Origin: a candidate division WOR_3 bacterium SM23_42
GTDB lineage: Bacteria > Hydrothermota > Tepidihabitantia > SM23-42
NCBI GenBank assembly: GCA_001303785.1
Contig: LJUJ01000009.1
Coordinates: forward strand, 43,569-107,568
Direction of reading: 5' to 3'
Length of the DNA: 64,000 nt
Shown here piece by piece: positions 36,343 to 56,544 of this stretch. A model generated the notes under the pieces. That model made no database searches, was not told the origin of the DNA, and worked only from the letters and a program-made list of their open reading frames with translations. Each line of letters begins with the position of its first letter. The first letter of the stretch is position 1. The position numbers and the translations under genes are program-made.

Positions 36343-37893
36343 ATGTTATATTCTCCTGAAGATCTGAAGGAATTCGATTATAGGCGCGATTTAGGTGATC
36401 CTGGTGAATATCCATTTACCCGCGGGATCTACCCTAGTATGTATAGTGGTAAGTTGTGGACGATGCGTCAGTATGCTGGCTACGGCACGGCCGAGGAATC
36501 GAATCGACGCTACAAATACCTGCTCGACCATGGACAAACCGGTCTGTCCGTTGCCTTTGACTTGCCGACACAGATGGGTTACGATTCTGACCATCCATTG
36601 TCCGAGGGCGAGGTGGGAAAGACAGGTGTGGCTATTGATACAATTGAAGATATGGAGATTCTATTTGCTGGCATCCCATTGGATAGGGTCAGCACATCAA
36701 TGACGATCAATGCGACAGCAGCGATTCTGCTGGCTATGTATATTGCGGTCGCAGAGAAAAGGAACATACTACCTGATGTTTTACAGGGTACTGTCCAGAA
36801 TGACGTACTCAAGGAGTATATTGCGCGTGGTGCGTACATTTATCCACCCGCAGCGTCAATAAAGATAACTGTCGATATAATCTCGTTTTGCAGCAAGCAC
36901 CTTCCGAAGTGGAATACAATTTCGGTATCTGGTTATCATATAAGAGAAGCTGGTGCTACTGCGGCACAAGAAGTAGCATTTACGCTTGCAAATGGTATTG
37001 CGTATGTGCAGTCGGTGATCGAACAGGGCGGTTTGGAAGTTGATGCTTTTGCACCGCGTATTTCTTTCTTCTTCAATGCTCATGTCGATTTCTTTGAAGA
37101 AGTGGCAAAGTTCCGCGCGGCAAGAAGGATTTGGGCAAAGATTATGAAGAAGGAATTCGGAGCCAAAAACCCTAAGTCGTGTATGTTAAGGTTTCACACG
37201 CAGACTGCCGGTTCATCACTCACCGCTCAGGAGCCCACCAACAATGCGGTTAGGGTAGCTTTTCAAGCATTAGCTGCAGTTTTGGGCGGTACACAGAGTT
37301 TGCATACGAACTCATTTGATGAAGCTCTGTCGCTACCTGCTGAGGACGCGGTTCGACTTGCATTGCGTACACAACAACTCATAGCCTACGAGAGCAATAT
37401 ACCCAGCGTTGTCGATCCAGTCGGTGGTTCGTACTACATCGAGTCTTTGACGGACAAATTAGAGACCGATGTAAACGATTATCTTGGAGAAATCGAAGCG
37501 ATGGGTGGTTCGGTAAGTGCTATCGACAAAGGGTATTTTCAAAAAGAAATACACAAATCTGCCTATACATATCAGAGGGCTGTGGAACGCGGTGAGAAGA
37601 ATGTCATTGGCGTAAACAAATTCGTCGATAAGCGGAAGATCAGGAGAAACGTTACTCTGAGGGTTTCGCCAAAGTGGGTGAGGAAACAGAAGGCGAGAAC
37701 GAGGAGAATTAGGCAGAAAAGGAAAAATAGATTTGTGCAAAGTGCACTAGGAGCATTAAGAAAAGATGCAATCGCCAATCGCAATGTGATGAAACCGATC
37801 ATCGACTGCGTAAGAGAATATGCAACCGTGGGTGAAATCTCTGACGTTTTGAGAGAAGCTTACGGTGTTTACAAAGAAAAGATAATATTTTAG
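36343..37893 (+). CDS. Methylmalonyl-CoA mutase large subunit (Tyr/Arg signature), no adjacent B12-binding subunit of its own
   Basis: 516 aa. MRQYAGY (Tyr codon 36472-36474) and KEYIARGAY (Arg codon 36826-36828) match the MCM Tyr89/Arg207 positions. Confidence 0.85.
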
Positions 37894-37952
37894 TGTTTAT
37901 GACATTAATGATAAGTTGTTACTAACTGGGTGTTAAAGAAGAGGGAGGTTAA

Positions 37953-39041
37953 ATGATTTTTGGAGTACCTAAAGAATTACCGCCCTTCAAGGGAATCGAG
38001 GAGTATCGAGTCGGCCTTTCACCTATGGGTGCTCAAGAATTGGTGTTATGCGGCGCCAAGGTATATGTGGAAAGCAAGGCTGGCCAAGCTGCCGGGTTTT
38101 CAGATGCTGACTACGAGAAGGCAGGTGCCACAGTCGTTTACTCCAAGGAAGAGGCATATCGCCGTGCCGAGATTGTGCTTAAGGTCAGAAGACCCCAACA
38201 AGATGAGTATCCTCTGATAAAAGAAGGGCAGGCCATAATGGGCTTCATCCATCTCATTACCGCCCGCAAGGAATTCTTGAAGACAATAGCCGACAAGAAG
38301 ATTACACTCGTTGGATATGAGATAATGCAGAAAGAAGATGGTCGGCTTCCCGTTGTAATACCATTTAGCGAAATGGCGGGCAAGCTTTCTGTCCAGATAG
38401 CGGGTCGGTTGCTAGAATCTCCACGTGGTGGCCGTGGTATACTACTAGGCGGCATACCCGGTATACCACCGGCTGAGGTTGTGATTTTGGGCGGCGGTAC
38501 ACTAGGGTGTAATGCAGCCAGGACTTTTGCTGGTGTCGGTGCAAACGTGTATGTACTGGACATCGATCGTAACAAGCTTGACCACCTTGCTTGTCATACT
38601 GCGAGTATGAAAGTTACGACTATGTTTGCGACCAGGCACAACATTGAAAAAATAGTCAGGTTTGCGGACGTTGTGGTTGGAGCAGTGTTGGTGCCTGGTA
38701 AGAGGGCACCGATTTTGGTGACCAAAGACATGGTCAAGACTATGCGCCGCGGGTCCGTAATCATCGATTTTTCGATTGATCAAGGTGGTTGCGTGGAGAC
38801 TGCGAAGGTCGCGCCGAGCGGGAAGTTTATTTACACCATCCATGACGTCATACACTTCTGCATGCCTAATGCGACGACATTGGTTGCGCGCACCGCGACC
38901 CACGCGCTTACGTCGAGTGCCTTTCCTTATCTCAAGATGATTACCGAGTTGGGTTTCGAGCGTGCGCTACGAGAGAGTCATGATCTGACAAAGGGTGTTT
39001 ATGCAGACAATGGTGAGATACGGAAGGAGTTCTTACCATGA
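37953..39041 (+). CDS. Alanine dehydrogenase / PNT-family NAD(H)-dependent dehydrogenase
   Basis: 362 aa. N-terminus MIFGVPKE...EYRVGLSPMGAQELV...GFSDADYEKAGA is typical of the AlaDH family. Rossmann motif VVILGGGTLGCNAA. Confidence 0.7.
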   Translation: MIFGVPKELPPFKGIEEYRVGLSPMGAQELVLCGAKVYVESKAGQAAGFSDADYEKAGATVVYSKEEAYRRAEIVLKVRRPQQDEYPLIKEGQAIMGFIHLITARKEFLKTIADKKITLVGYEIMQKEDGRLPVVIPFSEMAGKLSVQIAGRLLESPRGGRGILLGGIPGIPPAEVVILGGGTLGCNAARTFAGVGANVYVLDIDRNKLDHLACHTASMKVTTMFATRHNIEKIVRFADVVVGAVLVPGKRAPILVTKDMVKTMRRGSVIIDFSIDQGGCVETAKVAPSGKFIYTIHDVIHFCMPNATTLVARTATHALTSSAFPYLKMITELGFERALRESHDLTKGVYADNGEIRKEFLP

Positions 39042-40333
39042 GTTGGTTTGATGATTACAAAAAGAAGCTTTGCTCGGTTGCGGAAGCCGTATCTGTAGTA
39101 AAGAGCAAGAATCGTGTTTACATTAGTGGCAATGCAGCGACTCCTTTTCGTCTGACCGAAGCTTTAGCGCAAAGGAATGAAGAACTCCAGAGTGTTGAGA
39201 TTACCCACGTGCTGCTCTTGGGCGATGACCCTTTGTCGAAACCAGGCATGGAAGGGCACTTTCGTCACAATTCGCTCTTCGTAGGCCCCGCAGATCGAGC
39301 CGCAGTCAACGATGGGCGAGCCGATTACACACCCGTTTTTCTCTACGAAATACCACAGCTATTTTATGCAGCGATGCTACCACTCGACGTTGCCTTTCTG
39401 CATGTCTCACCACCGGATGAACATGGTTTTGTGAGTCTGGGTGTGGAATGTCTTGCATCGAAGGCTGCTGCCGAAACTGCCAAACTCGTCGTAGCACAGG
39501 TTAATGACCGCATGCCGAGGACACTCGGCGATTCATTCCTCCATATTTCTCGATTTGCAAAATTCGTGGAGGTGTCGGACGAATTGCCTGAATTGAAGAT
39601 TCCTCCCTTCACCGATGTGGAGAAGAAAATTGGAGATCATATCGCAGATCTTGTTGAAGACGGGTGCACACTGCAGTTGGGTATTGGGGGTATTCCTAAT
39701 GCTGCTTTGAAGGCGATGTTCAACAAAAGAGATCTAGGGATTCATACTGAGATGGTTTCAGATGGAATCGTTGAAGCGATAAATGCCGGGGTCATTACTG
39801 GTGCGAAGAAAACCTTGCATCCGGGAAAAGTGATAGCTACGTTCTATTTTGGCACGAAGGATTTGTATGACTTTATCGATAATAACCCGGTTTTTGAAAC
39901 GCATCCTACAAATTACACGAATCATCCGTATGTGATAGGTCAGAATGAGAAGATGATTGCGATAAACTCGGCGATTGAGGTAGACCTGACCGGTCAGGTC
40001 TGCGCGGATTCTATAGGTACGAGAATCTATTCTGGCTTTGGTGGGCAGGTTGACTTCATTCGTGGCGCAGCTCAATCCAAAGGCGGGAAGCCGATTATTG
40101 CGCTTACTTCATCGGCTAAGAATGATACGATTTCGAAGATTGTACCGACCCTGCAAGTTGGCGCGGGTGTTGTTACGACGCGCGCCGATGTTCATTATGT
40201 GGTCACCGAGTTCGGCGTGGCTTACCTGCATGGAAAAAACCTTAATGAGCGCGCCCATGCATTGATCAACATCGCACACCCTAATTTCAGGGACGATTTG
40301 ACCAAAGCAGCCAAAGAGCGAAAGCTAATATGA
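39038..40333 (+). CDS. Acetyl-CoA hydrolase/transferase family CoA-transferase (4-hydroxybutyrate/succinyl-CoA:acid CoA-transferase-like)
   Basis: 431 aa with LQLGIGGIPNA, AINSAIEVDLTGQV, SGFGGQVDF. ATGA overlaps with both neighbours. Confidence 0.8.
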   Translation: MSWFDDYKKKLCSVAEAVSVVKSKNRVYISGNAATPFRLTEALAQRNEELQSVEITHVLLLGDDPLSKPGMEGHFRHNSLFVGPADRAAVNDGRADYTPVFLYEIPQLFYAAMLPLDVAFLHVSPPDEHGFVSLGVECLASKAAAETAKLVVAQVNDRMPRTLGDSFLHISRFAKFVEVSDELPELKIPPFTDVEKKIGDHIADLVEDGCTLQLGIGGIPNAALKAMFNKRDLGIHTEMVSDGIVEAINAGVITGAKKTLHPGKVIATFYFGTKDLYDFIDNNPVFETHPTNYTNHPYVIGQNEKMIAINSAIEVDLTGQVCADSIGTRIYSGFGGQVDFIRGAAQSKGGKPIIALTSSAKNDTISKIVPTLQVGAGVVTTRADVHYVVTEFGVAYLHGKNLNERAHALINIAHPNFRDDLTKAAKERKLI

Positions 40334-40731
40334 AGCTAGAACATATTGGTATTGCTGTGAAAAGCATTGAGGAGCGATTAAGGCTCTGGCGAGATCTTTT
40401 TGGATTTTGTTTTGAAATGGATGAAGAGGTGCCAGAACAAAAGGTAAGGGTCGCAACGTTAGATATCGGAGGAGTGGCTATAGAACTCTTAGAACCGCTT
40501 TCCGATGATAGCCCGATCGCCAAGTTCATCGAGAAACGAGGTGAAGGTCTGCATCACCTAAGTTTTAAAGTAGATGACATAGAAAGCAAGATAGAGGAGT
40601 TGAAAGACAGGAACATAAGAATGATTGATGAGGTTCCAAGGAAAGGAGCCCATTGTTCAGCGATAGCATTTATTCATCCTTCAGCTACTGGTGGTGTTTT
40701 GATAGAACTGAGTCAAAAGGAAGACAACTAA
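40330..40731 (+). CDS. mce: Methylmalonyl-CoA epimerase (VOC superfamily)
   Basis: 133 aa with LEHIGIAV...VAIELLEPL...IAKFIEKRGEGLHHLSFKVDDI...GGVLIEL. Confidence 0.85.
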   Translation: MKLEHIGIAVKSIEERLRLWRDLFGFCFEMDEEVPEQKVRVATLDIGGVAIELLEPLSDDSPIAKFIEKRGEGLHHLSFKVDDIESKIEELKDRNIRMIDEVPRKGAHCSAIAFIHPSATGGVLIELSQKEDN

Positions 40732-41973: not shown

Positions 41974-42000
41974 AATACTTGTCTTTCGGAAGGAGGTTTG

Positions 42001-43047
42001 ATGGTCGGTATTGTCGGATACGGTTCTTATTTGCCGAGATATCGGATAAAGGTTGAGGAGATTGCTAAGCAGTGGGGACGCAATGCAGAAGCAGTGAAAC
42101 GCGGGCTGTTACTCAAGGAGAAGACGGTACCTGGGATGGATGAGGATACAATAACAATCTCGGTTGAAGCAGGGAAGAATGCATTGAGACGTGCTCAGAT
42201 CGACCCGACCGAAATCGGCGCTCTTTATATTGGTTCGGAGTCACATCCTTACGCGGTGAAACCATCCGGTACCGTGGTCGCAGAGGCGTTGGGGATAGTA
42301 CCTGATGTGCACATCGCCGACTACGAATTCGCTTGCAAGGCAGGCACCGAAGCCATGTTTGTGGCATATAGCCTGGTGAAGGCGGAACAGATGAAATACG
42401 CGATGGCCATCGGTTCGGATACATCACAGGGTGCGCCAGGCGATGCCCTCGAGTTCTCTGCTTCTGCAGGAGGTTCGGCGTTTATTTTTGGCAAAGAAAA
42501 CACCGTTGCCGATGTGATAGAGACACATTCGTATACAACAGATACGCCCGATTTCTGGCGGCGCGAAGGTGCTTTCTATCCACTCCATGGTGGTAGATTC
42601 ACCGGTGCCCCTGCTTATTTCAAGCACATTTTGGGTGCCGGCGAGGCCATTCTGAAGAAGAGCGGTCTTAGGGCATCTGATTTTACTTATGCGATATTCC
42701 ATATGCCTAACGGTAAGTTCCCTTTATCTGTGGGTAAGAAGTTAGGATTCAAAAAGGAGCAGCTTGAGCCCGGCTGGGTCGTTCCGTTAATGGGCAATAC
42801 CTATTCGGGTTCGTCACCGACCGGCTTTTCGGCAACCCTGGATGTTGCGCAACCTGGTAATCTTGTTCTCTTAGTTTCTTTTGGATCTGGTGCGGGTAGT
42901 GATGCATTTGTGTTTAAGGTGACCGAAAAAATAAATGAGGTAAGAGACAGAGCGGAAAAGGTTAAGGATCTACTCGAAAATGGTCGTATCTACTTGGACT
43001 ACGGTCAATACGCCAAATTCCGCGGTAAAATCATAATGAACGAATAA
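42001..43047 (+). CDS. Hydroxymethylglutaryl-CoA synthase, archaeal type
   Basis: About 348 aa. N-terminus VGIVGYGSYLPRYRI...DEDTITI, Cys context YEFACKAGT, and a short (~350 aa) length typical of the archaeal HMGCS that partners with thiolase and DUF35. Confidence 0.85.
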   Translation: MVGIVGYGSYLPRYRIKVEEIAKQWGRNAEAVKRGLLLKEKTVPGMDEDTITISVEAGKNALRRAQIDPTEIGALYIGSESHPYAVKPSGTVVAEALGIVPDVHIADYEFACKAGTEAMFVAYSLVKAEQMKYAMAIGSDTSQGAPGDALEFSASAGGSAFIFGKENTVADVIETHSYTTDTPDFWRREGAFYPLHGGRFTGAPAYFKHILGAGEAILKKSGLRASDFTYAIFHMPNGKFPLSVGKKLGFKKEQLEPGWVVPLMGNTYSGSSPTGFSATLDVAQPGNLVLLVSFGSGAGSDAFVFKVTEKINEVRDRAEKVKDLLENGRIYLDYGQYAKFRGKIIMNE

Positions 43048-43064
43048 ACCACTGAACACACTGA

Positions 43065-43550
43065 ATGGAAAAGATACAGAAAACACTGAACGAAAGGGAT
43101 ACTGAACGCACTGAAGCGGAAAATGGCGAAGTGGGATTACAGGAAATAGAGAGAGCGAGAGAATTGTACAGCAAAAAATACGATGAATACCCTTACTCGG
43201 ATGTCACGCAGAAAATAATCGGATGCGCAATACATGTCCACAAGAATCTAGGTCCAGGTTTCAAAGAGTCTGCGTACGAGAACGCACTTTTAGTTGAGTT
43301 AGATAGACGAGAAATACCCTATGAGCGTCAAAAACCAGTGGCGATCAACTACAAGGGCAAAGAGGTTGGAACATATAGGATAGATCTGGTGGTCGCCGAA
43401 AAGATAATAGTTGAACTGAAGGCTGTTAAGAGTATCAATATTGAAGATCGCAGGAATCTTTCGAAATATTTGAAAGCAACTAACACGAGAGTGGGTTTGC
43501 TATTGGATTTCTCTAAGCCTACAATAGAGATAAAGCGACCAGTCTTATAA
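43065..43550 (+). CDS. GxxExxY-family protein (PD-(D/E)XK-like fold) with N-terminal low-complexity extension
   Basis: 161 aa. Core IIGCAIHVHKNLGPGFKESAYENALLVELDRREIPYERQ...RIDLVVAEKIIVELKAV contains the GxxExxY motif. The N-terminus is encoded by CACTGAA heptamer repeats. Confidence 0.75.
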   Translation: MEKIQKTLNERDTERTEAENGEVGLQEIERARELYSKKYDEYPYSDVTQKIIGCAIHVHKNLGPGFKESAYENALLVELDRREIPYERQKPVAINYKGKEVGTYRIDLVVAEKIIVELKAVKSINIEDRRNLSKYLKATNTRVGLLLDFSKPTIEIKRPVL

Positions 43551-43586
43551 GGAGGCTGTTGGGTTTTCAGTGTTAAAGGGGGTATA

Positions 43587-44738
43587 ATGAGAGAGGTTGC
43601 GGTAGTAGGATGTGGTATGACGAAGTTCGGAGAGTTATGGTCACAGTCTTTGCGGGACATATTCGTCGAAGCTGCACTAAAAGCAATTGATGATGCACAT
43701 GTCGATCACATTGATTCGATGTACGTTGGTTCAATGACGCCGGGTCTTTTTATCGGTCAGGAGCACATCGGAGCGCTCATGGCTGACTATCTTGGTACGG
43801 CATCAATTCCAGCTGTGCGTGTTGAATCCGCCTGTTGTTCTGGTGGAATGGCAATGCGCCTTGGATATTTTGAAATCGCCTCGGGTCATAGTGAAATCAT
43901 TCTCGTGGGAGGTGTTGAGAAGATGACCGATGGCGCCGATGTTACGTATGCGCTTGCAACGGCTGCGGATCAAGAGTACGAGGTATATCACGGTATCACA
44001 TTCCCGGGATTGTATGCCATGATCGCAAAGGCACATATGTACAAGTATGGTACGACACGCAAGCAACTTGCCATGGTTTCAGTGAAGAATCACCACAACG
44101 GTGCATTCAATCCTAATGCTCAGTTCCCAGGCGAAGTCACCGTTGAACAGGTTATCAACGCGACTATGGTAGCCGATCCTTTGACCGTGCTTGATAGCTC
44201 ACCGGTGTCAGATGGGGCGGCCTGTGTGATTCTGGCGTCGATGGATGCTGCAAGTAAGTTGCAGATTCCTTTGATCAAGGTTTTGGGTAGCGGCGCGGCT
44301 ACCGATACTTTTGCACTCCACGCTCGCGAGGATATCACGGCGCTGAAAGCGGTCCAACTTTCTGCCAAAGCTGCGTATGAGATGGCCAAAGTGATGCCTA
44401 CTGATATAAATTTCGCGGAGGTCCACGACTGCTTCTCCATTGCAGAAATATGCATTATTGAAGAACTTGGTTTTACGGATAAAGGCAAAGGGGGGTCTTT
44501 CACTGAACAAGGCCGCACAGCCCTCGAGGGACCGATACCGGTAAACCCCTCAGGAGGACTGAAATCCAAGGGCCATCCAGTGGGTGCAACTGGTGTTGCT
44601 CAAATTGTCGAAACCGTGGAACAATTGCGAGGCGCTGCAGGGAAACGACAGGTCAAGAATGCGAGAATAGGTTTGACACAGAACATGGGTGGGTCAGGCG
44701 CATCGTCGGTCGTACATATTTTTGCTCTGCAAAAATGA
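43587..44738 (+). CDS. Thiolase (acetyl-CoA acetyltransferase), archaeal/SCP-x-like type
   Basis: 383 aa with active-site Cys context [11 protein letters not shown] and the C-terminal motifs [10 protein letters not shown] and GHPVGATG. Confidence 0.9.
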
Positions 44739-44759
44739 TGATTCAAACAGATATGCACA

Positions 44760-44809
44760 GATGCAGACGGATAGCAATCGTTTTGCATCAGCCTCAATCC
44801 GTTTGCATC
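44760..44809 (+). other. 13-bp stem hairpin in the thiolase-DUF35 spacer
   Basis: GATGCAGACGGAT (44760-44772) pairs with ATCCGTTTGCATC (44797-44809): 12 Watson-Crick pairs plus one G-U. It is followed by GGTTTTC. Confidence 0.4.
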
Positions 44810-44836
44810 GGTTTTCACGAAAGAAAGGAGTGAAAA

Positions 44837-45226
44837 ATGCCATCACCAAGATACCATAGAGAGATACCACAGAGATATCGACTCGAAGCCGCAAAGTGTA
44901 AGGAATGTGGTCGGATGTCGTTTCCTCCTCGGAGGGTTTGTAGTAACTGTGGAGCACGGGAATTTGAGATGACAAAATTGTCAGACCATGGGAAAATATT
45001 GACCTATACCACAATACGAGTAGCACCCAAGGATTTTGAGAATCAGGTACCTTACAATGTGGCAATTGTTGAGTCAGAAAATGGTGTAAGGGTGACGACC
45101 CAAGTTGTTGATTGCAAACCAGAGGACCTGGAGATTGGTAAGAGGGTTAAATTCGTTTTCCGCAAGTTGTATTCCGAAGGTCACACAGGAATAATCTGTT
45201 ATGGATATAAGGCAGTACTTATCTAA
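44837..45226 (+). CDS. DUF35 Zn-ribbon/OB-fold protein (thiolase/HMGCS scaffold type)
   Basis: 129 aa with Zn-ribbon CKECGRMSFPPRRVCSNCG followed by an OB-fold segment. It lies directly after the thiolase. Confidence 0.85.
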   Translation: MPSPRYHREIPQRYRLEAAKCKECGRMSFPPRRVCSNCGAREFEMTKLSDHGKILTYTTIRVAPKDFENQVPYNVAIVESENGVRVTTQVVDCKPEDLEIGKRVKFVFRKLYSEGHTGIICYGYKAVLI

Positions 45227-45340
45227 GCACGAAATCCTAAACAATATCAAATGACAAAAATCATAAATCCGAAACTTGTAAATCATTGTGGTTTTGAAAT
45301 TCGGATTTGTTTCGGATTTCGATATTAGGATTTCGGATTT
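45221..45340 (+). repeat. Intergenic palindromic element, copy C
   Basis: ATCTAAGCACGAAATCCTAAACAATATCAAATGAC...GGTTTTGAAATTCGGATTTGTTTCGGATTTCGATATTAGGATTTCGGATTT. The DUF35 stop codon is the TAA of the conserved CTAAGCAC box. Confidence 0.8.
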
Positions 45341-45349
45341 GAGAGGCTT

Positions 45350-46957
45350 ATGTACAAAATAGAATCAAAGATAAAAACAAATAGCCGCGAGTTTAGGGAA
45401 AACAAGGCAGTGATGGAAAAGGCCGTAAGCACTCTGAAGGACCGTTTGAAGCAGGTGAGGAAAGGCGGCCCTGAGTATATGCATAAGAAACATGCAGAGC
45501 GAGGTAAGTTGTTCGTCCGTGAGAGACTGGAGCGACTCTTTGACCCTGATACACCATTCATGGAGCTAAATCAATTGGCTGCTTGGGACATGTATGATAA
45601 TGGTCATCCTGCTGCGGCGATGGTTACGGGCATTGGTCTCGTCCATAACCGTGAGGTAATGGTTGTCGCTCATGATGCTACGGTAAAGGGTGGCACTTAT
45701 ATACCTGAAACGATTAAGAAGCATATTCGAGCTCAAGAGATTGCAATCGAAAACAGGTTACCGTGTATATATTTGGTTGATTCGGGTGGCATTTTCTTAC
45801 CGCTGCAGGTGGGTACTTTCCCTGACAAGTATCACTTCGGCAGAATCTTTTTCAACCAGGCTCGCATGTCTGCAGATAATATACCTCAGATATCTGTAGT
45901 ACTTGGCTTTTGCACGGCTGGCGGTGCCTACCAACCTGCGATGAGCGATGAAGTGGTCATCGTGAAGGGTGCGGGTACCATCTATATAGGTGGACCCCCT
46001 TTGGTTAAGGCCGCGACTGGTGAGGTCGTGACAGAAGAAGATTTGGGTGGCGCGGATGTTCACTGTCGGATTAGCGGCGTGGCGGACCACTATGCAATGA
46101 ATGATGAACATGCCCTGGAGATGACGAGGAATATTGTTGAGAACGTATCGAGGATAAACAAGTACCCACTGGAACGCGTGCAGACCGTGGAACCAGCATA
46201 TGACCCAAGTGAGCTTTATGGTATCATCCCGGCTGATCTTAGAAAACCGTTTGATGTGCGCGAGGTCATCGCCCGTATCGTTGACGGTAGTGAGTTTCAT
46301 GAATTCAAAGCGCTCTATGGTCCCACTCTGGTATGCGGTTTTGCTCGCGTGATGGGTTACCCGGTGGGAATTTTGGCTAACAATGGAGTATTATTCTCTG
46401 AGTCATCGCAAAAGGGTTCCCATTTTGTATCCATGTGCGCGGTACGCAGGATTCCAATTCTCTTCCTGCAGAACATCACTGGGTTCATTGTTGGTAAGCG
46501 GTACGAACACGGGGGAATAGCAAAGGATGGCGCCAAGTTGATTCATGCGGTAGCCAATGCGCAGGTGCCGAAATTTACTATTATCATCGGTAATTCCTAC
46601 GGCGCGGGCAACTATGGTATGTGTGGGCGTGCCTATGATCCGCGTCTGTTATGGATGTGGCCAACGGCGAAGATCTGTGTGATGGGTGGCGAACAGGCCG
46701 CAGGTGTGTTGACCGACATCAAAGTGAGGGCTTTGACCAAACAGGGGAAGAAGCTAACCAAAGACAAGATAGAAGAGATTAGAAAGCCGATACTGGCGAA
46801 GTATGAGTATGAGTCGAGCGCCTATTACTCTACGGCAAGGCTCTGGGACGATGGTATAATAGATCCATCGGACACGAGAGAAATATTGGGTCTCGCCATT
46901 TCCATGTCCTTGAATGCACCGATACCCGAACATAAGTTCGGCGTGTTCAGGATGTAG
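45350..46957 (+). CDS. 3-Methylcrotonyl-CoA carboxylase beta (carboxyltransferase) subunit
   Basis: 535 aa with [62 protein letters not shown]. The length and motifs match the MCC-beta type more than the PCC-beta type. Confidence 0.8.
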
Positions 46958-46965
46958 TCGATCGC

Positions 46966-47094
46966 AAATCCGAAGCACTAAATCCGAAATTCGAAACAAT
47001 ACCTAATGACCGAAATCCAAAATTCTAAACTGTTTTGAAAATTGGGATTTGGAATTTGTTTCGGATTTCGATATTAGGATTTCGTATTTAGAAT
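46966..47094 (+). repeat. Intergenic palindromic element, copy D
   Basis: AAATCCGAAGCACTAAATCCGAAATTCGAAACAATACCTAATGACCGAAATCC...TGTTTTGAAAATTGGGATTTGGAATTTGTTTCGGATTTCGATATTAGGATTTCGTATTTAGAAT. Confidence 0.85.
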
Positions 47095-47106
47095 GAAGGG
47101 GGTTTG

Positions 47107-47436
47107 ATGGCAAAGATAAGCTTGAAAAAACTGGTCAGGGAAATTAAGGAACCGTGGCAGCCAAGGGACATATTACATGTTCATCAAACCGCGCTTAGAA
47201 TAGCCAAACTTGATGGAGCTTATGGTTGGCATGTGCATTTGCACGAGGATGAGTTCTTCTTGGTGTTGAAAGGTAGGATATATATCGATACTGAAGAAGA
47301 CTCGATCGAGCTTAAAGAATACGAAGGATATCTTGTGAAACGCGGGATCAGACATCGTTCGCGAACCAAGAAACCTGCTTGGGTGATGCTCGTTGAGCCG
47401 GTTATAACTAAGACAAAGGGTGAGCGTACTGATTGA
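47107..47436 (+). CDS. Cupin domain protein (paralog of 16384..16710)
   Basis: About 109 aa with WHVHLHEDEFF...GYLVKRGIRHRS. Aligns along its length with the cupin next to glnS. Confidence 0.7.
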   Translation: MAKISLKKLVREIKEPWQPRDILHVHQTALRIAKLDGAYGWHVHLHEDEFFLVLKGRIYIDTEEDSIELKEYEGYLVKRGIRHRSRTKKPAWVMLVEPVITKTKGERTD

Positions 47437-47473
47437 TTAGCGAGTTTACATAAGAGTTAAGGGGGTGTTTCCC

Positions 47474-48265
47474 ATGCGAGAAGCGAAGTATCAAACAATT
47501 GTTTATGAACTTCAAGATGACATCGCACGCGTGACTTTCGATCGCCCTGATGTCCATAATGCCTTTAATGACATAATGATCAGCGAATTGATTGACGTAT
47601 TCGATGAAATAGACAAGCGTTCAGAAGCACGCGTGGTGGTGGTGACTGGTAGGGGTAAGTCTTTTTGTGCCGGCGCCGACCTGAATTGGATGCGTCGAGT
47701 CAAGGATTATTCATATGAAGATAACCTCCGCGAATCACTAGAGCTCTCAGACATGCTCTATAAGATATACGCCTCTTCGAAACCGACGATCGCCCGAGTG
47801 AACGGAGCAGCAATAGGAGGTGGGACCGGACTCGTTGCGGTTTGTGATATTGCAATTGCAGCTGACAGCGCGAAGTTTAGTTTCAGTGAAGTGAAGATCG
47901 GACTCATCCCCGCTTGTATTTCGCCGTATGTCGTCAAGAAGTGTGGCGAGGGACAATGTCGGGAGTTTTTTCTGACCGGTGAAAGGCTGACGGCAGATAA
48001 AGCACAAAGGGCTGGCCTCGTTAACAAAGTAGTGGCGTTAGATGAGCTTGATGATACTGTCGATCAGTTTGTCAATCAGTTAAAATCCAGCGGGCCTGAA
48101 GCAGTCACAAGATGCAAAGAACTGTTGAGAAATGTGCCACACATGTCCTATGATGATGTTAAGAAATATACGGCAGAAGTGATTGCTCAAATACGCATGT
48201 CAGATGAGGGGCAGGAAGGGATGCTCGCGTTTCTTGAAAAACGGAAACCGAAGTGGAACGAATAG
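47474..48265 (+). CDS. Enoyl-CoA hydratase/isomerase family; likely methylglutaconyl-CoA hydratase by context
   Basis: ATG at 47474 follows AAGGGGG. Crotonase motifs VVVVTGRGKSFCAGADL and NGAAIGGG. Located between the MCC beta and MCC biotin carboxylase genes. Confidence 0.75.
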   Translation: MREAKYQTIVYELQDDIARVTFDRPDVHNAFNDIMISELIDVFDEIDKRSEARVVVVTGRGKSFCAGADLNWMRRVKDYSYEDNLRESLELSDMLYKIYASSKPTIARVNGAAIGGGTGLVAVCDIAIAADSAKFSFSEVKIGLIPACISPYVVKKCGEGQCREFFLTGERLTADKAQRAGLVNKVVALDELDDTVDQFVNQLKSSGPEAVTRCKELLRNVPHMSYDDVKKYTAEVIAQIRMSDEGQEGMLAFLEKRKPKWNE

Positions 48266-48303
48266 CATGCGGTATCGCTATGCTCGCAGGAAACGCGCCG
48301 TGA

Positions 48304-48435
48304 AAATCCTAAGCACGAAATCCGAAATACTAAACAATCTCAAATACCAAAATACCAAATTCAAAACAGGTTTTGGAGTTTTGAACATTAGAATTTTGGA
48401 TTTGTTTCGGATTTCGAAATTCGGATTTCGAATTT
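48304..48435 (+). repeat. Intergenic palindromic element, copy E (long-apex subtype)
   Basis: AAATCCTAAGCACGAAATCCGAAATACTAAACAATCTCAAATACCAAAATACCAAATTCAAAACAGGTTTTGGAGTTTTGAACATTAGAATTTTGGATTTGTTTCGGATTTCGAAATTCGGATTTCGAATTT. Confidence 0.85.
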
Positions 48436-48439
48436 AAAA

Positions 48440-49942
48440 ATGATGTTCAAAAAGATTTTAATCGCTAATAGAGGTGAAATAGCCATCCGCATTGCCAGGG
48501 CATGCAGGGAACTTGGCATACGAGCGGTCGGGGTATACTCAACAGTCGACGAGAATGCCCATCATCTTCGATACATGGATGATACCCACTGGATAGGTGA
48601 TTCGCCACCCCAGGCAAGCTATTTGAATATTTCAAACGTTATCGATGTCGCTGGGCGAGCCGGTGCTCAAGCAATTCATCCGGGCTATGGGTTTCTGGCG
48701 GAAAATTCAGATTTTGCTAAGGCATGTGAGGAGAGTGGTCTTGTATTCATAGGTCCTAGTTCGAATGCATTGGCTCTGGTTGGTGACAAAGTAGCATCGC
48801 GCAATACGGTTCAGAAAGTTGGTGTGCCGATAATACCCGGTATGCGAACCGTTGGTAAAGATTCAAGCGGCTTTAAGAAAATGGCCAAGAAAGTCGGATA
48901 CCCGGTCATTGTGAAGGCATCTATGGGTGGTGGTGGTAAGGGCATGCGTATCGTTCGCACCGAAAAGGAATTGGAAGCGAGTATTGCCGCCGGACAAAGG
49001 GAAGCCAAGAGTGCATTCGGGGATGCATCGGTTTACTTGGAGAAATACATAGAAAAACCACGTCACATAGAATTTCAGGTGCTCAGGGATCACCACGGCA
49101 ATGTGGCTCATCTTTTCGAACGCGAATGTTCGATTCAGCGTCGTCATCAGAAGATAATTGAAGAGACTCCTTCCGCGGCGCTCGACGATGAGCTACGCAT
49201 GAATATGGGCGAGGCTGCAAAAAAGGTCATTGAGATTGCCGAGTACACCAATGCCGGTACGGTGGAGTTCCTCCTCGATGAAAACCGTAACTTTTACTTT
49301 CTCGAGGTTAATGCGCGAGTGCAAGTTGAACATCCAATCACCGAGATGGTGACTGGAGTCGACTTAGTTCGACAGCAAATACGTATTGCCGCTGGTGACA
49401 AAATTAATTTGAGTCAAGCAAGTATCAAACAGCGCGGTCATGCAATTGAGGCAAGAATCTACGCCGAGGACCCAGAGAACAACTTCCTGCCATGCCCGGG
49501 TAGGATTCTGTACCTGAATGAACCGAGTGGTCCTGGTATTAGGGTTGATTCTGGTATATATCAGGGTTGGGATGTGCCACCGCATTATGATCCCATTCTA
49601 TCCAAATTGATAGTCTGGGCAGAGAATAGGGATGTTGCGATAGAGCGAATGTCCAATGCACTGAAAGACTACATCGTCTTGGGTATAAAAAACAATCTCG
49701 GCTACTTGAAACGTATTATGGGTACGTCGAAATTCACCAAAGGGGATTATGACACGCATTTCATTGATGAAAACGAAGAGGAGCTGAGTATACCTAAAGA
49801 AAACATCCATGTGGTTCTGGTTGCAGCAGCGTTGCTTGCTGCAGAAAAGAAAGGCGTATCAGTGGAATCGGGTGGCACTCAGGTACGGCGTGACACCACA
49901 CCATGGCAAGAACTTGGGCATTGGGAGATATGCGAAGATTGA
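48440..49942 (+). CDS. Biotin carboxylase subunit (stand-alone), MCC-alpha-like
   Basis: 500 aa, paralog of 34344..35843, with KILIANRGEIAIR, GYGFLAEN, KASMGGGGKGMR, ERECSIQRRHQKIIEE, NARVQVEHPITE. Confidence 0.9.
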   Translation: MMFKKILIANRGEIAIRIARACRELGIRAVGVYSTVDENAHHLRYMDDTHWIGDSPPQASYLNISNVIDVAGRAGAQAIHPGYGFLAENSDFAKACEESGLVFIGPSSNALALVGDKVASRNTVQKVGVPIIPGMRTVGKDSSGFKKMAKKVGYPVIVKASMGGGGKGMRIVRTEKELEASIAAGQREAKSAFGDASVYLEKYIEKPRHIEFQVLRDHHGNVAHLFERECSIQRRHQKIIEETPSAALDDELRMNMGEAAKKVIEIAEYTNAGTVEFLLDENRNFYFLEVNARVQVEHPITEMVTGVDLVRQQIRIAAGDKINLSQASIKQRGHAIEARIYAEDPENNFLPCPGRILYLNEPSGPGIRVDSGIYQGWDVPPHYDPILSKLIVWAENRDVAIERMSNALKDYIVLGIKNNLGYLKRIMGTSKFTKGDYDTHFIDENEEELSIPKENIHVVLVAAALLAAEKKGVSVESGGTQVRRDTTPWQELGHWEICED

Positions 49943-49990
49943 TGCGGTTGTTGTGGATAATTATCATTCGCCTCAGCAGGTAGGCATAAA

Positions 49991-50497
49991 ATGGAAAACC
50001 GTTTGCGACATCTAAACGAAATACACTTGATCAAACTGGCTAAAGAAAAGGACGGGTACAAGGCAATAATCGGTGATGCTGAGTATAAAGTAAGCGATCT
50101 TTTCGTAAAGGAAAACTTGATTTGCTTTAGGATTGACGGTGAGCTGCGTGTGATATATCATGCTCAGGATAGCGGAACAAGATATATGGCACTTGCTGGA
50201 GAACACTATGTAGTCGAAACAGTTAAGGCTCGGGAATCTGGTGCGAAGAGTACTGTCCCGCAAGAGGAAAACAGCGTTACATCACAAATGCCCGGACTGT
50301 TGGTCAAATTACCAGTTGCCGTGGGTGATAAGGTCAAGGCGGGTGAGACACTTGCGATCGTGGAGGCAATGAAGATGCAGAATGAACTGCGCGCACCCCG
50401 CGACGGTACAGTCGAGAAAATCAACTTTCAGGAAGGTGAACAGGTAGATGCTCTGCAAGCCATAGTTGAACTCGCTGACCTACATGAAAAGCAGTGA
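49991..50497 (+). CDS. Biotin carboxyl carrier protein (biotinyl domain)
   Basis: 168 aa with biotinylation motif IVEAMKMQNEL. Paralog of 35845..36336. Confidence 0.85.
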   Translation: MENRLRHLNEIHLIKLAKEKDGYKAIIGDAEYKVSDLFVKENLICFRIDGELRVIYHAQDSGTRYMALAGEHYVVETVKARESGAKSTVPQEENSVTSQMPGLLVKLPVAVGDKVKAGETLAIVEAMKMQNELRAPRDGTVEKINFQEGEQVDALQAIVELADLHEKQ

Positions 50498-50532: not shown

Positions 50533-50665
50533 AAACGCGAAGCACTAAATTCGAAATACTAAACAATATCAAATACTAAATCACAAATTTCAAAACAGGT
50601 TTTGGAGGTTCCAACATTAGAATTTTGAGTTTGTTTCGTAATCTCGGTATTCGTATTTAGGATTT
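50533..50665 (+). repeat. Intergenic palindromic element, copy F (long-apex subtype, more diverged)
   Basis: AAACGCGAAGCACTAAATTCGAAATACTAAACAATATCAAATACTAAATCAC...AAAACAGGTTTTGGAGGTTCCAACATTAGAATTTTGAGTTTGTTTCGTAATCTCGGTATTCGTATTTAGGATTT. Confidence 0.8.
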
Positions 50666-51968: not shown

Positions 51969-52137
51969 GAGCGGTAACAGCAAATAGTGGAAACAAGCCA
52001 GGCGAATTTGAATTTTGTGTGTACGCGGGGAAAGATGTGGCAACTCGTTGAAGAACGTGATATGTTTTGCGTGTCTAATTGTGCTTGTCGGGAAGAAAAG
52101 ACTGGTTCTGAATGCAAAATTCATGAAAGGAGGCGAC

Positions 52138-52914
52138 ATGCCTTATGAGTACATACTTGTTGACAAAGCTGATAAAATAGGGTTTGTGAAAATCAATCGC
52201 CCTGATGTGTATAATGCAGTCAGTGTTGAGGCAATGCTAGAGTTGGAAAAGGCCGTGCAGGATTTCAATAATGATCGTGAAGTTTCGGTCGTCGTTATCA
52301 CCGGCGAGGGGAAATCTTTTGTGTCTGGTTCAGATATTTCAAGACTAGTAGAGATGGATTCACTGACAGCCCGTGAATACAGCCAAATCGGACAGAGGGT
52401 TTTAGCGTTCATCGAAAACATGGAGAAGCCAGTAATTGCTGCGGTTAACGGTTTTGCCCTTGGTTCGGGATGCGAGCTGGCAATGGCATGCGATATTAGA
52501 GTTGCTTCCGAGAAAGCAAAGTTCGGGCAGCCTGAGGTGAAACTTGGTCTGATACCGGGACATGCTGGTACCCAAAGGTTAGCCAGGATTGTAGGCATCG
52601 CTAAGGCGAAGGAGCTAATCTTCACCGGCGAGATGATCGATGCCCAGGAAGCCTTGCGTTTGGGATTGGTGAACAAAGTCGTAGCACCCGATGTACTTCT
52701 TGAAGAAGTGAAAAGTATTGCGAGAAAGATAATAGAAGTTGGCCCGACCGCCGTGCGCATTGCGAAGACAGTCATTAATCGCGGGATTGATGCCAATCTA
52801 ACCACGGCAAATTCTTATGAAACAGAAGCTTTCAGTATACTCTTCTCAACTGAGGAGGCTAAGGAAGGAATGACCGCGTTTCTCGAGAAGAGAAAACCAA
52901 ACTGGAACAAATAA
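52138..52914 (+). CDS. Enoyl-CoA hydratase (crotonase)
   Basis: ATG at 52138 follows AAAGGAGG (the ORF-track start 52015 is an upstream extension). VVITGEGKSFVSGSDI, NGFALGSGCELAMACD, FGQPEVKLGLIPG. Confidence 0.88.
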   Translation: MPYEYILVDKADKIGFVKINRPDVYNAVSVEAMLELEKAVQDFNNDREVSVVVITGEGKSFVSGSDISRLVEMDSLTAREYSQIGQRVLAFIENMEKPVIAAVNGFALGSGCELAMACDIRVASEKAKFGQPEVKLGLIPGHAGTQRLARIVGIAKAKELIFTGEMIDAQEALRLGLVNKVVAPDVLLEEVKSIARKIIEVGPTAVRIAKTVINRGIDANLTTANSYETEAFSILFSTEEAKEGMTAFLEKRKPNWNK

Positions 52915-53062
52915 ATCCGAAATACAAATAGTAAGTATCTTACTAGCGTTGGGGTTGGGATGCTGGAACTACTGAGAACGAAGAAATTCATTTTTCTGTT
53001 TTTGTTTGGGACATTAGGATTTGGAATTTGTTTAATATTTCGATATTCGGATTTCGAATTTT
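52913..53062 (+). repeat. Intergenic palindromic element, copy G (left arm disrupted by ~80 nt of unrelated sequence)
   Basis: It starts AAATCCGAAATACAAATA inside the TAA stop. The right arm ACATTAGGATTTGGAATTTGTTTAATATTTCGATATTCGGATTTCGAATTTT is intact. The interior (52931-53010) is unrelated to the other copies. Confidence 0.7.
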
Positions 53063-53081
53063 CCGCTAGGAAGGAGGTTTG

Positions 53082-54419
53082 ATGAACTTGGATGAGAGAC
53101 TCCAGGATGTGACTGTTATAGGTGCTGCAGGGAAGATGGGCAGTGGTATCGGTGTATTGATTGCCCAAGAGATGGCGAAGCTGAAGCTGAAGCCCGAAAA
53201 CAAAGACAAGGTTTATCGATTGAATTTGATTGACGTGAGCGAGCAGGCATTGGATGGCCTGAGGGCGTATATGAAGGCACAGCTCCTCAAGGTAGCAGAG
53301 AAATCAACTGTTCTGCTCCGTAGTCTTTACGAAGATCGGAAGGATCTCGTTGAGAATAGTGAAATAATAAATGCCTTCGTCGATGATTCAACGCGCGTTC
53401 TGAACTTCGGGACGGATCTGGCCATGGCTAAGAACAGCCATCTTGTGTTTGAGGCTATCTTTGAAAATGAGAAAGTGAAAACAAAAATCTACAGGCGACT
53501 GAATAAGATGTGCGGTGCGGATGCATTTTACCTCACGAATACTTCAAGTATCCCGATCGGCCATCTGGATGAAAAGGCCGGTCTTGGTGGTCGGCTCATA
53601 GGCTATCACTTCTATAATCCACCCGTTGTCCAGAAATTGGTGGAAGTCATTACCGCTAAGAACACAATCGATGAGTTGAAAGAGATAGCCAAGGAGCTTG
53701 GTAATCGGTTGCGCAAGACGTTGGTGCCGGCAAGCGATATTTCGGGTTTCATTGGTAACGGCCACTTCATGCGTGACGGACTACACGCAATCAGCGAGGT
53801 TGATCGGCTCAAGAGCAGGTTCCGATATGTAGGTGCGGTTTATGTGATGAATCGAATTTCCCAGGATTTTCTAGCACGGCCGATGGGGATATTCCAGCTC
53901 ATCGACTATGTGGGTATCGATGTATTTCAATGCATATTGAAGGTGATGCGAACTCATCTTGGTGATAAGGCATTGAGGAGCAGATTGATCGACAAGATGG
54001 TTAAGGAAAAAGTGCTGGGTGGTCAATATGCTGATGGTTCACAGAAAGATGGTTTTCTGAAGTACGAGAAGAATCGGCCGGTTGGCATATATGATATCAG
54101 AAAGCACGAATACCAACCCGTTACAGAAGACTGGAAAAAGAGAGTTGACGCGAAAATAGGATCTTTGCCTGAGGGCTTCGTATCCTGGCGGGCCCTACTC
54201 ATGGATAGTAAGAAGGATGAGAAACTGAAAGCGCATTTTACACAACTAAAGGAGATGGATACGCTCGGTGCTGAACTTGCAATGGACTATTTGAAGCAGA
54301 CCGGAGCAATTGCTCAAGACTTGATAAGTCAAGGTGTGGCGAAGACGAAGGATGATGTAAACGCAGTGCTCAAGAACGGATTTTTCTGGCTATATGGACC
54401 GATTAATGACTACCTCTAA
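53082..54419 (+). CDS. 3-Hydroxyacyl-CoA dehydrogenase (long form)
   Basis: ATG at 53082 follows GGAAGGAGG. NAD-binding VTVIGAAGKMGSGIG. The HADH core segment YHFYNPPVVQKLVEV follows. About 445 aa. Confidence 0.8.
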   Translation: MNLDERLQDVTVIGAAGKMGSGIGVLIAQEMAKLKLKPENKDKVYRLNLIDVSEQALDGLRAYMKAQLLKVAEKSTVLLRSLYEDRKDLVENSEIINAFVDDSTRVLNFGTDLAMAKNSHLVFEAIFENEKVKTKIYRRLNKMCGADAFYLTNTSSIPIGHLDEKAGLGGRLIGYHFYNPPVVQKLVEVITAKNTIDELKEIAKELGNRLRKTLVPASDISGFIGNGHFMRDGLHAISEVDRLKSRFRYVGAVYVMNRISQDFLARPMGIFQLIDYVGIDVFQCILKVMRTHLGDKALRSRLIDKMVKEKVLGGQYADGSQKDGFLKYEKNRPVGIYDIRKHEYQPVTEDWKKRVDAKIGSLPEGFVSWRALLMDSKKDEKLKAHFTQLKEMDTLGAELAMDYLKQTGAIAQDLISQGVAKTKDDVNAVLKNGFFWLYGPINDYL

Positions 54420-54422
54420 GGC

Positions 54423-54556
54423 AAAATACGAAGCACTGAATTCGAAATACTAAACAATACTAAATGACCAAAACACAAAATTCAAAACAGGTATTAGAAT
54501 TTAGAACATTTGGATTTTGAATTTGTTTCGGATTTCGATATTCGGACTTAGGATTT
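54423..54556 (+). repeat. Intergenic palindromic element, copy H (long-apex subtype)
   Basis: AAAATACGAAGCACTGAATTCGAAATACTAAACAATACTAAATGACCAAAACACAAAATTCAAAACAGGTATTAGAATTTAGAACATTTGGATTTTGAATTTGTTTCGGATTTCGATATTCGGACTTAGGATTT. Confidence 0.85.
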
Positions 54557-54574
54557 GCTCAGAAAGGAGCTATT

Positions 54575-55822
54575 ATGTCTTTTTTCAGAAAGAAAGTATA
54601 TGCTTGCGCCGGATTCTATACTGTTTCATTGGGGACCGGGAGAAAGGAATTTCATCCTAAGAAACCACGTCCGGGTCTTGAGCATTACATCAAGGATGCC
54701 GGACTCGGGTCGATCGAACAGATAAGAAACCCCGAACATATTGATGAAGGGGTCATTGGGAATTTTGTAGCCGCAAGATTCTGCCATCAAGGCAATCTCG
54801 GCGGTTTCTTCCCCTATATACACGATACTTTCCAATACAAGCCTTGCGTGCGGGTTGAGGGCGCATGTGATTCAGGAGGCTTGGCACTAGTTGCTGCGGT
54901 TAAGACGATTCTTGCTGACCTGGCTGATTCGGTATTGTGCATTGGTGTTGAAGTGCAAAACTCGGTGAAGGCGGTCTATGGTGCAGACTACCTTGCCGCT
55001 GCGGGCTGGTACTCGGGAGAGAGAAAGAAGGGGCATGCTTATTTCTTCCCGGATCAGTTCTCGCAGCGTGCGGGTGCTTGTTTTGACAAATTCGGTTTTG
55101 AGAAATTCCGTCCTGGTATGGCTCAGTGGTATGTTAACGCAATCGAAAACGCTCGTAAGAATCCCAAAGCACAAGAATACCACAACAGGAATTCCGACCT
55201 ACACGCGACTGGAATGACATCGCCAAACCCAAAGGCGTTTTGTGAATATATCAATGTTTTTGATTGTTCAAAGGTATCGGATGGTGGCGCCGCACTTATT
55301 TTTGCTTCCGAAGAAGGCTTGAAAAAAATCGGCGTGGACAAAAAAGATGCCGTCGAAGTTGTTGCATACGCCCAGGTCCAGGATAACCTAACTACACCAC
55401 CACCTGATTTGACTAAGTTGACGACTTGCGAGATTGCCGCAAAGCGAGCATACGAGCGGGCGAATATACAACCGAAAGACCTCTGTGTATTAGACGTTCA
55501 TGACTGCTTCACGGTTGCTGGTTTGTTGGCGGTTGAGGCCGCAGGTTTCGCGGGTTACGGTGAAGGCGCTGATTTCGTGAAGGATGGTAATACAAAGCTT
55601 GATGGAACCATACCCACCAATACGTCGGGCGGTTTAATTGGGTACGGTCATCCAACCGGCGCGACCGGGGTCAGACAGGCAGTAGATGTTGTGCATCAAC
55701 TATCTAGTAGGGCCGGTGACTATCAGGTACGGATCAGCGCTGATAGACCGTATGGTATGATATCAAGCATGGGCGGTAATGACAAGACCGTGGTGGCCAT
55801 GATATTCAGAAAGACTGAATAG
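54575..55822 (+). CDS. Thiolase-domain protein (SCP-x-type acetyl-CoA acyltransferase)
   Basis: 415 aa with nucleophile context VEGACDSGGLA and the C-terminal motifs DVHDCFTVAG and GHPTGATG. Confidence 0.85.
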   Translation: MSFFRKKVYACAGFYTVSLGTGRKEFHPKKPRPGLEHYIKDAGLGSIEQIRNPEHIDEGVIGNFVAARFCHQGNLGGFFPYIHDTFQYKPCVRVEGACDSGGLALVAAVKTILADLADSVLCIGVEVQNSVKAVYGADYLAAAGWYSGERKKGHAYFFPDQFSQRAGACFDKFGFEKFRPGMAQWYVNAIENARKNPKAQEYHNRNSDLHATGMTSPNPKAFCEYINVFDCSKVSDGGAALIFASEEGLKKIGVDKKDAVEVVAYAQVQDNLTTPPPDLTKLTTCEIAAKRAYERANIQPKDLCVLDVHDCFTVAGLLAVEAAGFAGYGEGADFVKDGNTKLDGTIPTNTSGGLIGYGHPTGATGVRQAVDVVHQLSSRAGDYQVRISADRPYGMISSMGGNDKTVVAMIFRKTE

Positions 55823-55839
55823 TCCAGAATGGGATTCTG

Positions 55840-56544
55840 ATGATCGTCGGCAGGAAGTTCTATCAACTCACTGAGATTGGTTCCACTAACGATTATGTCA
55901 AGAGCGAACTCAGTGATGCACCAGAAGGAACTGTAGTCATTGCTGATGTTCAGACCGCAGGCAAGGGAAGAATGGGGCGGGATTGGTATTCCCCGGAAGG
56001 CGGCTTATGGATGTCGGTTTTACTCCAGCACAGCGAAAATTGCCTGATTCCATTGACGGCCGGCGTTGCGATATGTGAGGCATTTCATAACTACAGCATT
56101 AGACCAAACATCAAATGGCCTAATGATATATTGCTGCATGGTAAGAAAGTTGCCGGCATCTTGACGGAGGTCATTGACGACAGGGTCATATTGGGCATGG
56201 GTATTAATCTGAATGTTCGCCAGTTCCCGGACGATTTAATAGGCAGGGCGAGTTCTGTACTCATTGAGACCAGGAAGCATTTTGACGCGCAAGCGTTCTG
56301 CCAGCATCTGTGTAAAACACTCGATGAGAATTATAGGATCTTAAAAGATGAACAGGTTGATACATTACTTGCCAAATGGCGTAACTACTCGGTAATGCTT
56401 GGCCGCGATGTGACAATCAAGCTTCCCGATAGAACGGTATTTGGCCGGGTATTGGATATCGACCGGCGGGGCGCTTTGATCGTCGTGCGTGCCGATTATG
56501 GCGTTGAGCATATTATCGCAGGCGAATGTAGATTGTTGAACTGA
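55840..56544 (+). CDS. birA: Biotin--[acetyl-CoA-carboxylase] ligase (group I, no HTH domain)
   Basis: 234 aa with the signature QTAGKGRMGRDWYSPEGGLWMS and KWPNDIL..GKKVAGILTE. Confidence 0.88.
   Translation: MIVGRKFYQLTEIGSTNDYVKSELSDAPEGTVVIADVQTAGKGRMGRDWYSPEGGLWMSVLLQHSENCLIPLTAGVAICEAFHNYSIRPNIKWPNDILLHGKKVAGILTEVIDDRVILGMGINLNVRQFPDDLIGRASSVLIETRKHFDAQAFCQHLCKTLDENYRILKDEQVDTLLAKWRNYSVMLGRDVTIKLPDRTVFGRVLDIDRRGALIVVRADYGVEHIIAGECRLLN

Follow-up and report, generated by a model that had tools for sequence, protein, structure and literature searches.

An archaeal-type HMG-CoA synthase complex that probably takes the place of the lyase in a bacterial leucine/isovalerate degradation cluster

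Background

What does an archaeal-type 3-hydroxy-3-methylglutaryl-CoA (HMG-CoA) synthase, together with its thiolase and DUF35 partners, do in a bacterium directly upstream of genes for leucine breakdown? The arrangement occurs in a stretch of 64,000 nucleotides, hereafter the window, from candidate division WOR_3 bacterium SM23_42 (assembly GCA_001303785.1, contig LJUJ01000009.1, forward-strand positions 43,569 to 107,568; contig C31 in our set), where the trio precedes a 3-methylcrotonyl-CoA carboxylase (MCC) and a hydratase. WOR-3/Stahlbacteria are the nearest named relatives of the window. The archaeal thiolase/HMG-CoA synthase/DUF35 complex is reported from 2018 (PMC5879682, as cited in PMC12960953); its enzymes share a fused CoA site (PMC12960953). 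About 1,000 bacterial loci carrying the trio were left unexplained (PMC12960953).

HMG-CoA synthase is regarded as a one-way biosynthetic enzyme, and annotation pipelines take it for a mevalonate marker. Calls of leucine or isovalerate degradation, for their part, require a lyase, for example as 'carboxylation + lyase + beta-oxidation' (PMC7382037).

Here we propose that the trio fills the HMG-CoA-cleavage slot of the leucine/isovalerate branch, replacing the lyase. Gene content and its distribution among genomes lead us to give this reading a probability of roughly 0.72; its substrates, direction, complex formation, co-transcription and the fate of the acetyl group are what we infer. Reversal of the trio in the lyase's stead had been one of two readings in a preliminary description of the window. 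Comparative genomics now argues for the replacement, since trio, lyase and a protein called AtuA alternate on one MCC core, and by implication for the reverse direction.

Should the trio stand in for the lyase, the reconstructions of entire groups, WOR-3 and Zixibacteria among them, would be wrong on the mevalonate as well as the leucine/isovalerate count, and the same role could explain part of the roughly 1,000 unexplained bacterial loci. HMG-CoA would also be a simple candidate substrate for the long-unassigned AtuA family. Literature searches for leucine routes that lack a lyase or reverse the synthase brought up nothing relevant, and no paper on the operon was found; the exchange of trio, lyase and AtuA on the MCC core in Zixibacteria is new here.

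Results

An archaeal-type trio precedes an MCC core

Nine genes, all on the + strand, occupy positions 42001-50497. Their order and coordinates agree with the preliminary description (41998-50497), in which two of them, the GxxExxY gene in the gap between synthase and thiolase and the cupin gene in the gap between MCC-beta and hydratase, went unmentioned:

42001..43047, + strand: archaeal-type HMG-CoA synthase, 348 amino acids from the ATG at 42001 (profile models, 6ESQ, intact E-C-H-N tetrad)
43065..43550, + strand: GxxExxY protein (PD-(D/E)XK family), an accessory insertion between synthase and thiolase
43587..44738, + strand: archaeal/SCP2-type acetoacetyl-CoA thiolase (C83, HDxF with H280, and GH intact)
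44837..45226, + strand: DUF35 scaffold (zinc ribbon C21/C24/C35/C38 and OB fold)
45350..46957, + strand: MCC-beta (carboxyltransferase, LiuB-like)
47104..47436, + strand: small cupin protein, at this position in close WOR-3 relatives only
47465..48265, + strand: crotonase of the methylglutaconyl-CoA/carboxygeranoyl-CoA hydratase group (LiuC-like)
48440..49942, + strand: biotin carboxylase half of a split MCC alpha (ATP-grasp)
49991..50497, + strand: biotin carboxyl carrier protein (BCCP) half of the split MCC alpha

The trio belongs with the archaeal-type complex because all sequence features examined agree, which bears out the earlier assignment. The synthase exceeds both archaeal-type cut-offs (TIGR00748, 529 bits vs 353; PRK04262, 535 vs 244) and falls below that of the bacterial MvaS model (TIGR01835, 104 vs 360). 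The top solved relatives are chains of the Methanothermococcus complex 6ESQ, with E-values of 9e-133 for the synthase and 6e-115 for the thiolase, and the DUF35 protein keeps its zinc-ribbon and OB domains. The synthase tetrad E81, C113, H235 and N267 (numbered from a TTG at 41998) is intact; H235 and N267 are invariant across 80 bacterial relatives, with 131 of 349 columns at least 95% conserved. Likewise, C83, HDxF and GH are invariant in 71 bacterial thiolases, and the window protein has the CxS motif. The residues required for HMG-CoA synthesis are E-C-H-N in the synthase and HDxF in the thiolase (PMC12960953). The GxxExxY insertion is single-copy in the genome, recurs in genome G007 and is absent from most relatives' operons.

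The genes behind the trio are present as first described. By its scores the carboxyltransferase groups with MCC-beta (732 bits to 3U9R, 709 to human MCC) and not with geranyl-CoA carboxylase (462) or propionyl-CoA carboxylase (at most 281); its highest match, 9TPS (764 bits), was labelled propionyl-CoA carboxylase by its depositors. The hydratase scores under curated cut-offs, and its putative substrate is assigned from gene context. Across phyla the minimal unit consists of the trio, MCC-beta and the hydratase, with or without biotin carboxylase and BCCP. Loci L020 and L176-L178 have the trio and MCC-beta, in most cases with the hydratase, and no adjoining biotin carboxylase or BCCP; their alpha part may be common to another carboxylase.

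Lyase and mevalonate genes are missing from the whole genome

The preliminary description had found no lyase, HMG-CoA reductase or mevalonate kinase in the window, and the statement extends to the whole assembly (2.53 Mb, 97.2% complete, 1.8% contaminated). A profile search of the genome, whose control recovered 14 of 14, returned no protein of the HMGL-like family PF00682, to which LeuA also belongs, and tblastn gave no match to canonical HMG-CoA lyase. HMG-CoA reductase and mevalonate kinase were not found in the genome, whose two GHMP kinases are IspE and ThrB (homoserine kinase), and the methylerythritol phosphate (MEP) pathway genes Dxr and IspG are present. Neither a lyase nor a mevalonate pathway is therefore available elsewhere in the genome as an independent explanation of the two gene sets. 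Genome searches were also negative for AtuA, for IlvD, for the sodium-pumping decarboxylase beta subunit and for the family-I CoA-transferases PF01144 (acetoacetate/AibAB type), the family in which we place AibAB; no aibA/aibB-like gene thus came to light.

VorB scores above its cut-off; the genome further has a class-IV aminotransferase and two genes of the glutamate-dehydrogenase family. Because of these genes, the MEP genes and the absences of IlvD and others, the organism apparently cannot synthesise branched-chain amino acids in the standard way, and appears able to convert leucine to isovaleryl-CoA and to make isoprenoids through MEP. Judged by gene content, the trio is not part of a mevalonate pathway.

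The trio and MCC are linked in relatives and in other phyla

Among 61 WOR-3-class genomes, 45 have both synthase and MCC-beta (one synthase being a contig-end fragment) and 14 have neither; in the remaining two, which have the synthase, the contig breaks right behind the thiolase. Fisher tests on such co-occurrence overstate it, as kin are not independent. None of the 60 relatives has an HMG-CoA lyase, their PF00682 matches being of LeuA, oxaloacetate-decarboxylase or other synthase type. A reductase occurs in one of the 61, as a lone partial gene on a 3.9 kb contig of the same genus (L127, G009:C186), and it may be mis-binned. The order trio then MCC-beta is seen again in loci whose titles name Zixibacteria, Aminicenantes and others, and of 50 sampled trio-bearing genomes 44 lack the reductase.

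Trio, lyase and AtuA exchange on one core in Zixibacteria

We compared 201 genomes of Zixibacteria, the phylum of genome G070. The synthase is found in 165, MCC-beta in 180 and a high-scoring canonical lyase in nine. All nine lyases lie directly behind the BCCP gene of the same MCC-beta/hydratase/biotin carboxylase/BCCP core. The synthase is not found in three of these nine genomes, five have an unlinked and diverged trio, and in one both stand in the operon. The five unlinked trios share about 50/45/30% identity with the window, vs about 62-67/57-66/41-61% for linked copies, and form one long branch with catalytic motifs kept. In these stand-alone trios (L244-L248) ESP replaces ESH after the catalytic glutamate, and DUF35 apparently lacks its first cysteine pair.

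No synthase match was obtained in 24 Zixibacteria genomes with MCC. Three of them have the lyase; of 15 more that were inspected, 11 carry AtuA (PF07287 plus PF23544) immediately ahead of MCC-beta, in three a contig end truncates the trio and in one the operon lies at a contig edge, six of the 24 lying outside the inspected set. AtuA directly before MCC-beta in genomes with neither trio nor canonical lyase was seen at L249-L251 and L253-L260 (Zixibacteria) and at L012/L014 (Ignavibacteria). Ignavibacteria also have a split AtuA behind the trio, away from MCC.

AtuA has been tentatively described as a lyase acting on an HMG-CoA analogue, with acetate and a 3-oxoacyl-CoA as its products (PMC4847356; PMC13689101). 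By analogy, AtuA and a reversed synthase would break the same bond, and AtuA is here predicted to turn HMG-CoA into acetoacetyl-CoA and acetate. No solved structure matches AtuA by sequence. Because two cleaving enzymes, lyase and AtuA, exchange with the trio, the trio would be a cleaving device too. On the MCC-beta tree, AtuA-only operons are scattered among operons with both trio and AtuA, with at least three changes on well-supported branches, counts that give no direction; loss of the trio where AtuA or lyase is present would be the simplest account.

Discussion

A proposed route from leucine to acetyl-CoA

In the proposed route, leucine would be transaminated and oxidised to isovaleryl-CoA (aminotransferase, Vor), which an acyl-CoA dehydrogenase with electron-transfer flavoprotein (ETF) would dehydrogenate. 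MCC would then carboxylate the product at the cost of one ATP, and the hydratase would yield HMG-CoA. The synthase would reverse its aldol step, giving acetoacetyl-CoA and an acetyl group on the enzyme cysteine. The attached thiolase would take the acetoacetyl-CoA at once through the fused CoA site, its exergonic thiolysis pulling the reaction. The acetyl-enzyme could pass its acetyl group to CoA, for three acetyl-CoA in all and a gain of one thioester over the lyase route, or it could be hydrolysed, for two acetyl-CoA and acetate. The sequence cannot separate these variants, and the missing acetoacetate-activating CoA-transferase fits both because no free acetoacetate arises in either.

The thioester-conserving variant is tentative, and we put it somewhat below even odds. 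A reverse synthase of this kind would combine an ATP push at MCC with a channeled thiolysis pull, yield three acetyl-CoA and gain one extra ATP-equivalent per leucine or isovalerate relative to the lyase route, and would do so across many uncultured anaerobic phyla, with AtuA as a third, acetate-releasing solution. It would then be relevant to organisms near the thermodynamic limit.

Points that weigh against cleavage by the trio

Several observations count against this assignment. The thiolase condensation takes about +25 kJ/mol and the synthase reaction yields about -35 to -40 kJ/mol; HMG-CoA + 2 CoA -> 3 acetyl-CoA is uphill by about 10-15 kJ/mol and needs the push of the ATP-driven carboxylation. 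The deficit is within what the ATP step of MCC could supply, and with hydrolysis of the acetyl-enzyme the overall sum would be clearly downhill. Theisen et al. reportedly saw a back-reaction of the synthase, which is not counted as evidence here. The archaeal complex has been demonstrated in the synthetic direction only (PMC12960953).

The distribution is also less tidy than a plain replacement would have it. Of 40 Zixibacteria trio operons, 15 carry AtuA, between DUF35 and MCC-beta, and one carries the lyase; trio, lyase and AtuA therefore do not strictly exclude one another and may have complementary roles. The six lyase operons on the MCC-beta tree form one clade, so the lyase swap may be a single event. 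In eight of the 50 sampled trio genomes a second lyase-family protein belongs to a separate cluster with a CoA-transferase. In the class around the Ignavibacteria genome G078 (n=121) 11 genomes have the trio, 16 a lyase-family protein and one both, counts that are uninformative about exclusivity. Neither a close MCC-beta nor a reductase is found in several trio genomes of Gemmatimonadota, Planctomycetota and other groups, and in some operons MCC-beta has no neighbouring biotin carboxylase or BCCP. Given this coexistence with AtuA, the second lyase-family protein, the trios without MCC-beta or reductase and the operons without biotin carboxylase and BCCP, the trio may have more than one use in bacteria. 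Every genome in the comparison is metagenome-assembled.

The second lyase-family protein (L142, L144-L146, L148, L149, L151, L153) stands with a transporter, a CaiB-type CoA-transferase and a gene resembling isocitrate/isopropylmalate dehydrogenases, and it probably acts on another substrate. The window's genome has the dehydrogenase of that cluster (C18, 70% identity) and none of its other genes.

Alternative explanations

Were the trio to run in its known, exergonic direction, it would make HMG-CoA from three acetyl-CoA; the hydratase would dehydrate it, MCC would decarboxylate the product, possibly regaining ATP, and dehydrogenase/ETF would reduce it to isovaleryl-CoA, serving as iso-fatty-acid starter, as a source of leucine through reductive carboxylation or as a sink for electrons. 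In anaerobes, both Vor and dehydrogenases linked to ETF can work reversibly. The absence of LeuA, hence of standard leucine synthesis, also favours such a route. Myxococcus offers a precedent in MvaS, LiuC, AibAB and AibC (PMC5389471). However, neither an AibAB-type fold nor a sodium-pumping decarboxylase beta subunit turned up in the genome, the ATP-dependent biotin carboxylase and BCCP are retained in the operon, isovaleryl-CoA is obtainable from leucine, and IlvD is absent too, as for a peptide feeder. The core would moreover have to change direction among relatives, because with lyase or AtuA it is catabolic. We consider biosynthesis unlikely; as the other reading of the preliminary description, an isovaleryl-CoA route like the alternative one of myxobacteria (AIB pathway), it is weakened by the missing decarboxylases, the ATP-dependent carboxylase and the leucine source. 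A role of the trio as LeuA substitute was rejected, as relatives G011, G021 and G038 have LeuA as well as trio and MCC.

The trio might instead be a helper, its thiolase handling acetoacetyl-CoA or the complex balancing the HMG-CoA pool both ways, with cleavage left to an unrecognised enzyme. The 15 operons with trio and AtuA, and the Ignavibacteria in which AtuA follows the trio away from MCC, would suit this, and a bacterial complex is known whose synthase is dead and which functions as a thiolase only (PMC12960953). Against it, the synthase tetrad is intact here, with its H and N invariant in the 80 bacterial relatives, and trio-only operons of different phyla share no further conserved gene; we regard the idea as improbable, slightly more so than biosynthesis. 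Least credible is that the trio serves a mevalonate pathway and adjoins MCC by chance. A reductase does occur in six of the 50 trio genomes and, as the fragment mentioned above, among WOR-3 relatives, but this genome has MEP genes and neither reductase nor mevalonate kinase, and trio and MCC are linked and jointly present or absent over relatives and phyla. This last explanation is largely refuted.

Comparison with known systems

Replacement of the lyase by the trio would make the cluster work most like the Liu pathway (liuABCDE, Pseudomonas and relatives) with a different last step; it is not a complete Liu pathway. In both, a single gene run holds MCC beta, the domains of MCC alpha and a LiuC-like hydratase, with acyl-CoA dehydrogenases in the window, but here LiuE is missing from the genome, MCC alpha is split in two genes, and the trio stands in front where the lyase stands behind. 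The archaeal complex comprises the same three families, adjacent, with tetrad, CxS, HDxF, GH and four zinc cysteines kept. Unlike it, the present trio belongs to a bacterium with MEP and without reductase or mevalonate kinase, is linked to MCC and hydratase, and is proposed to cleave. AtuA resembles the trio in its position before MCC-beta in Zixibacteria and in its proposed 3-oxoacyl-CoA product, the same as expected from a reversed synthase, whereas its family is unrelated, it is absent from this genome and its own activity is tentative.

The AIB pathway of Myxococcus xanthus (PMC5389471) likewise ties an HMG-CoA synthase to methylglutaconyl-CoA chemistry without mevalonate; here, in contrast, the synthase is archaeal-type and not MvaS, AibAB is missing and a biotin- and ATP-dependent carboxylase is present. 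The Friedel-Crafts acyltransferases PhlABC and MucABC (PMC12960953, PMC6392133) are bacterial complexes of the same three families that have lost the tetrad and HDxF, both intact here. No polyketide synthase or nonribosomal peptide synthetase genes were seen among the window's open reading frames.

Surroundings of the cluster

The flanking genes and the intergenic repeats are as follows:

935..6335, + strand: EtfBA and three acyl-CoA dehydrogenases, candidate enzymes for isovaleryl-CoA dehydrogenation
28628..40731, + strand: MeaB, mutase with isobutyryl-CoA-mutase signature, B12-binding subunit, propionyl-CoA carboxylase, methylmalonyl-CoA mutase, alanine dehydrogenase, CoA-transferase, epimerase
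52015..56544, + strand: crotonase, 3-hydroxyacyl-CoA dehydrogenase, second thiolase, biotin ligase
45223..45340, no strand: palindromic repeat, copy 1 of 4, intergenic
46962..47089, no strand: palindromic repeat, copy 2 of 4, intergenic
48304..48437, no strand: palindromic repeat, copy 3 of 4, intergenic
50533..50665: palindromic repeat, fourth copy, intergenic

The repeat is about 120 bases long, occurs at about 40 sites in the genome and fills the 120-175-base spacers of the cluster. Promoter and terminator consensus scans gave chance-level counts (34 vs 29.5 and 19 vs 16.6) and have no bearing on co-transcription.

Going by predicted gene functions, the window holds a cluster for the catabolism of amino acids and acyl-CoAs, which also includes a tryptophanase-family lyase and a methionine gamma-lyase-like gene, named from sequence only. 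The genes at 28628..40731 are assigned to the valine/isoleucine/propionate branch. By these assignments valine and isoleucine are covered by established pathways, and leucine is without a standard gene only at HMG-CoA cleavage. None of the three acyl-CoA dehydrogenases scores above a specific cut-off. At 4581-10853, an HdrA/GltD-like flavoprotein and a protein resembling HdrD come after EtfBA, this set being a likely electron outlet for the acyl-CoA dehydrogenases. Within the cluster, two B12 mutase large subunits (29578-31209 and 36343-37893) share one B12-binding subunit; one has the Phe/Gln signature of isobutyryl-CoA mutase and the other the Tyr/Arg signature of methylmalonyl-CoA mutase.

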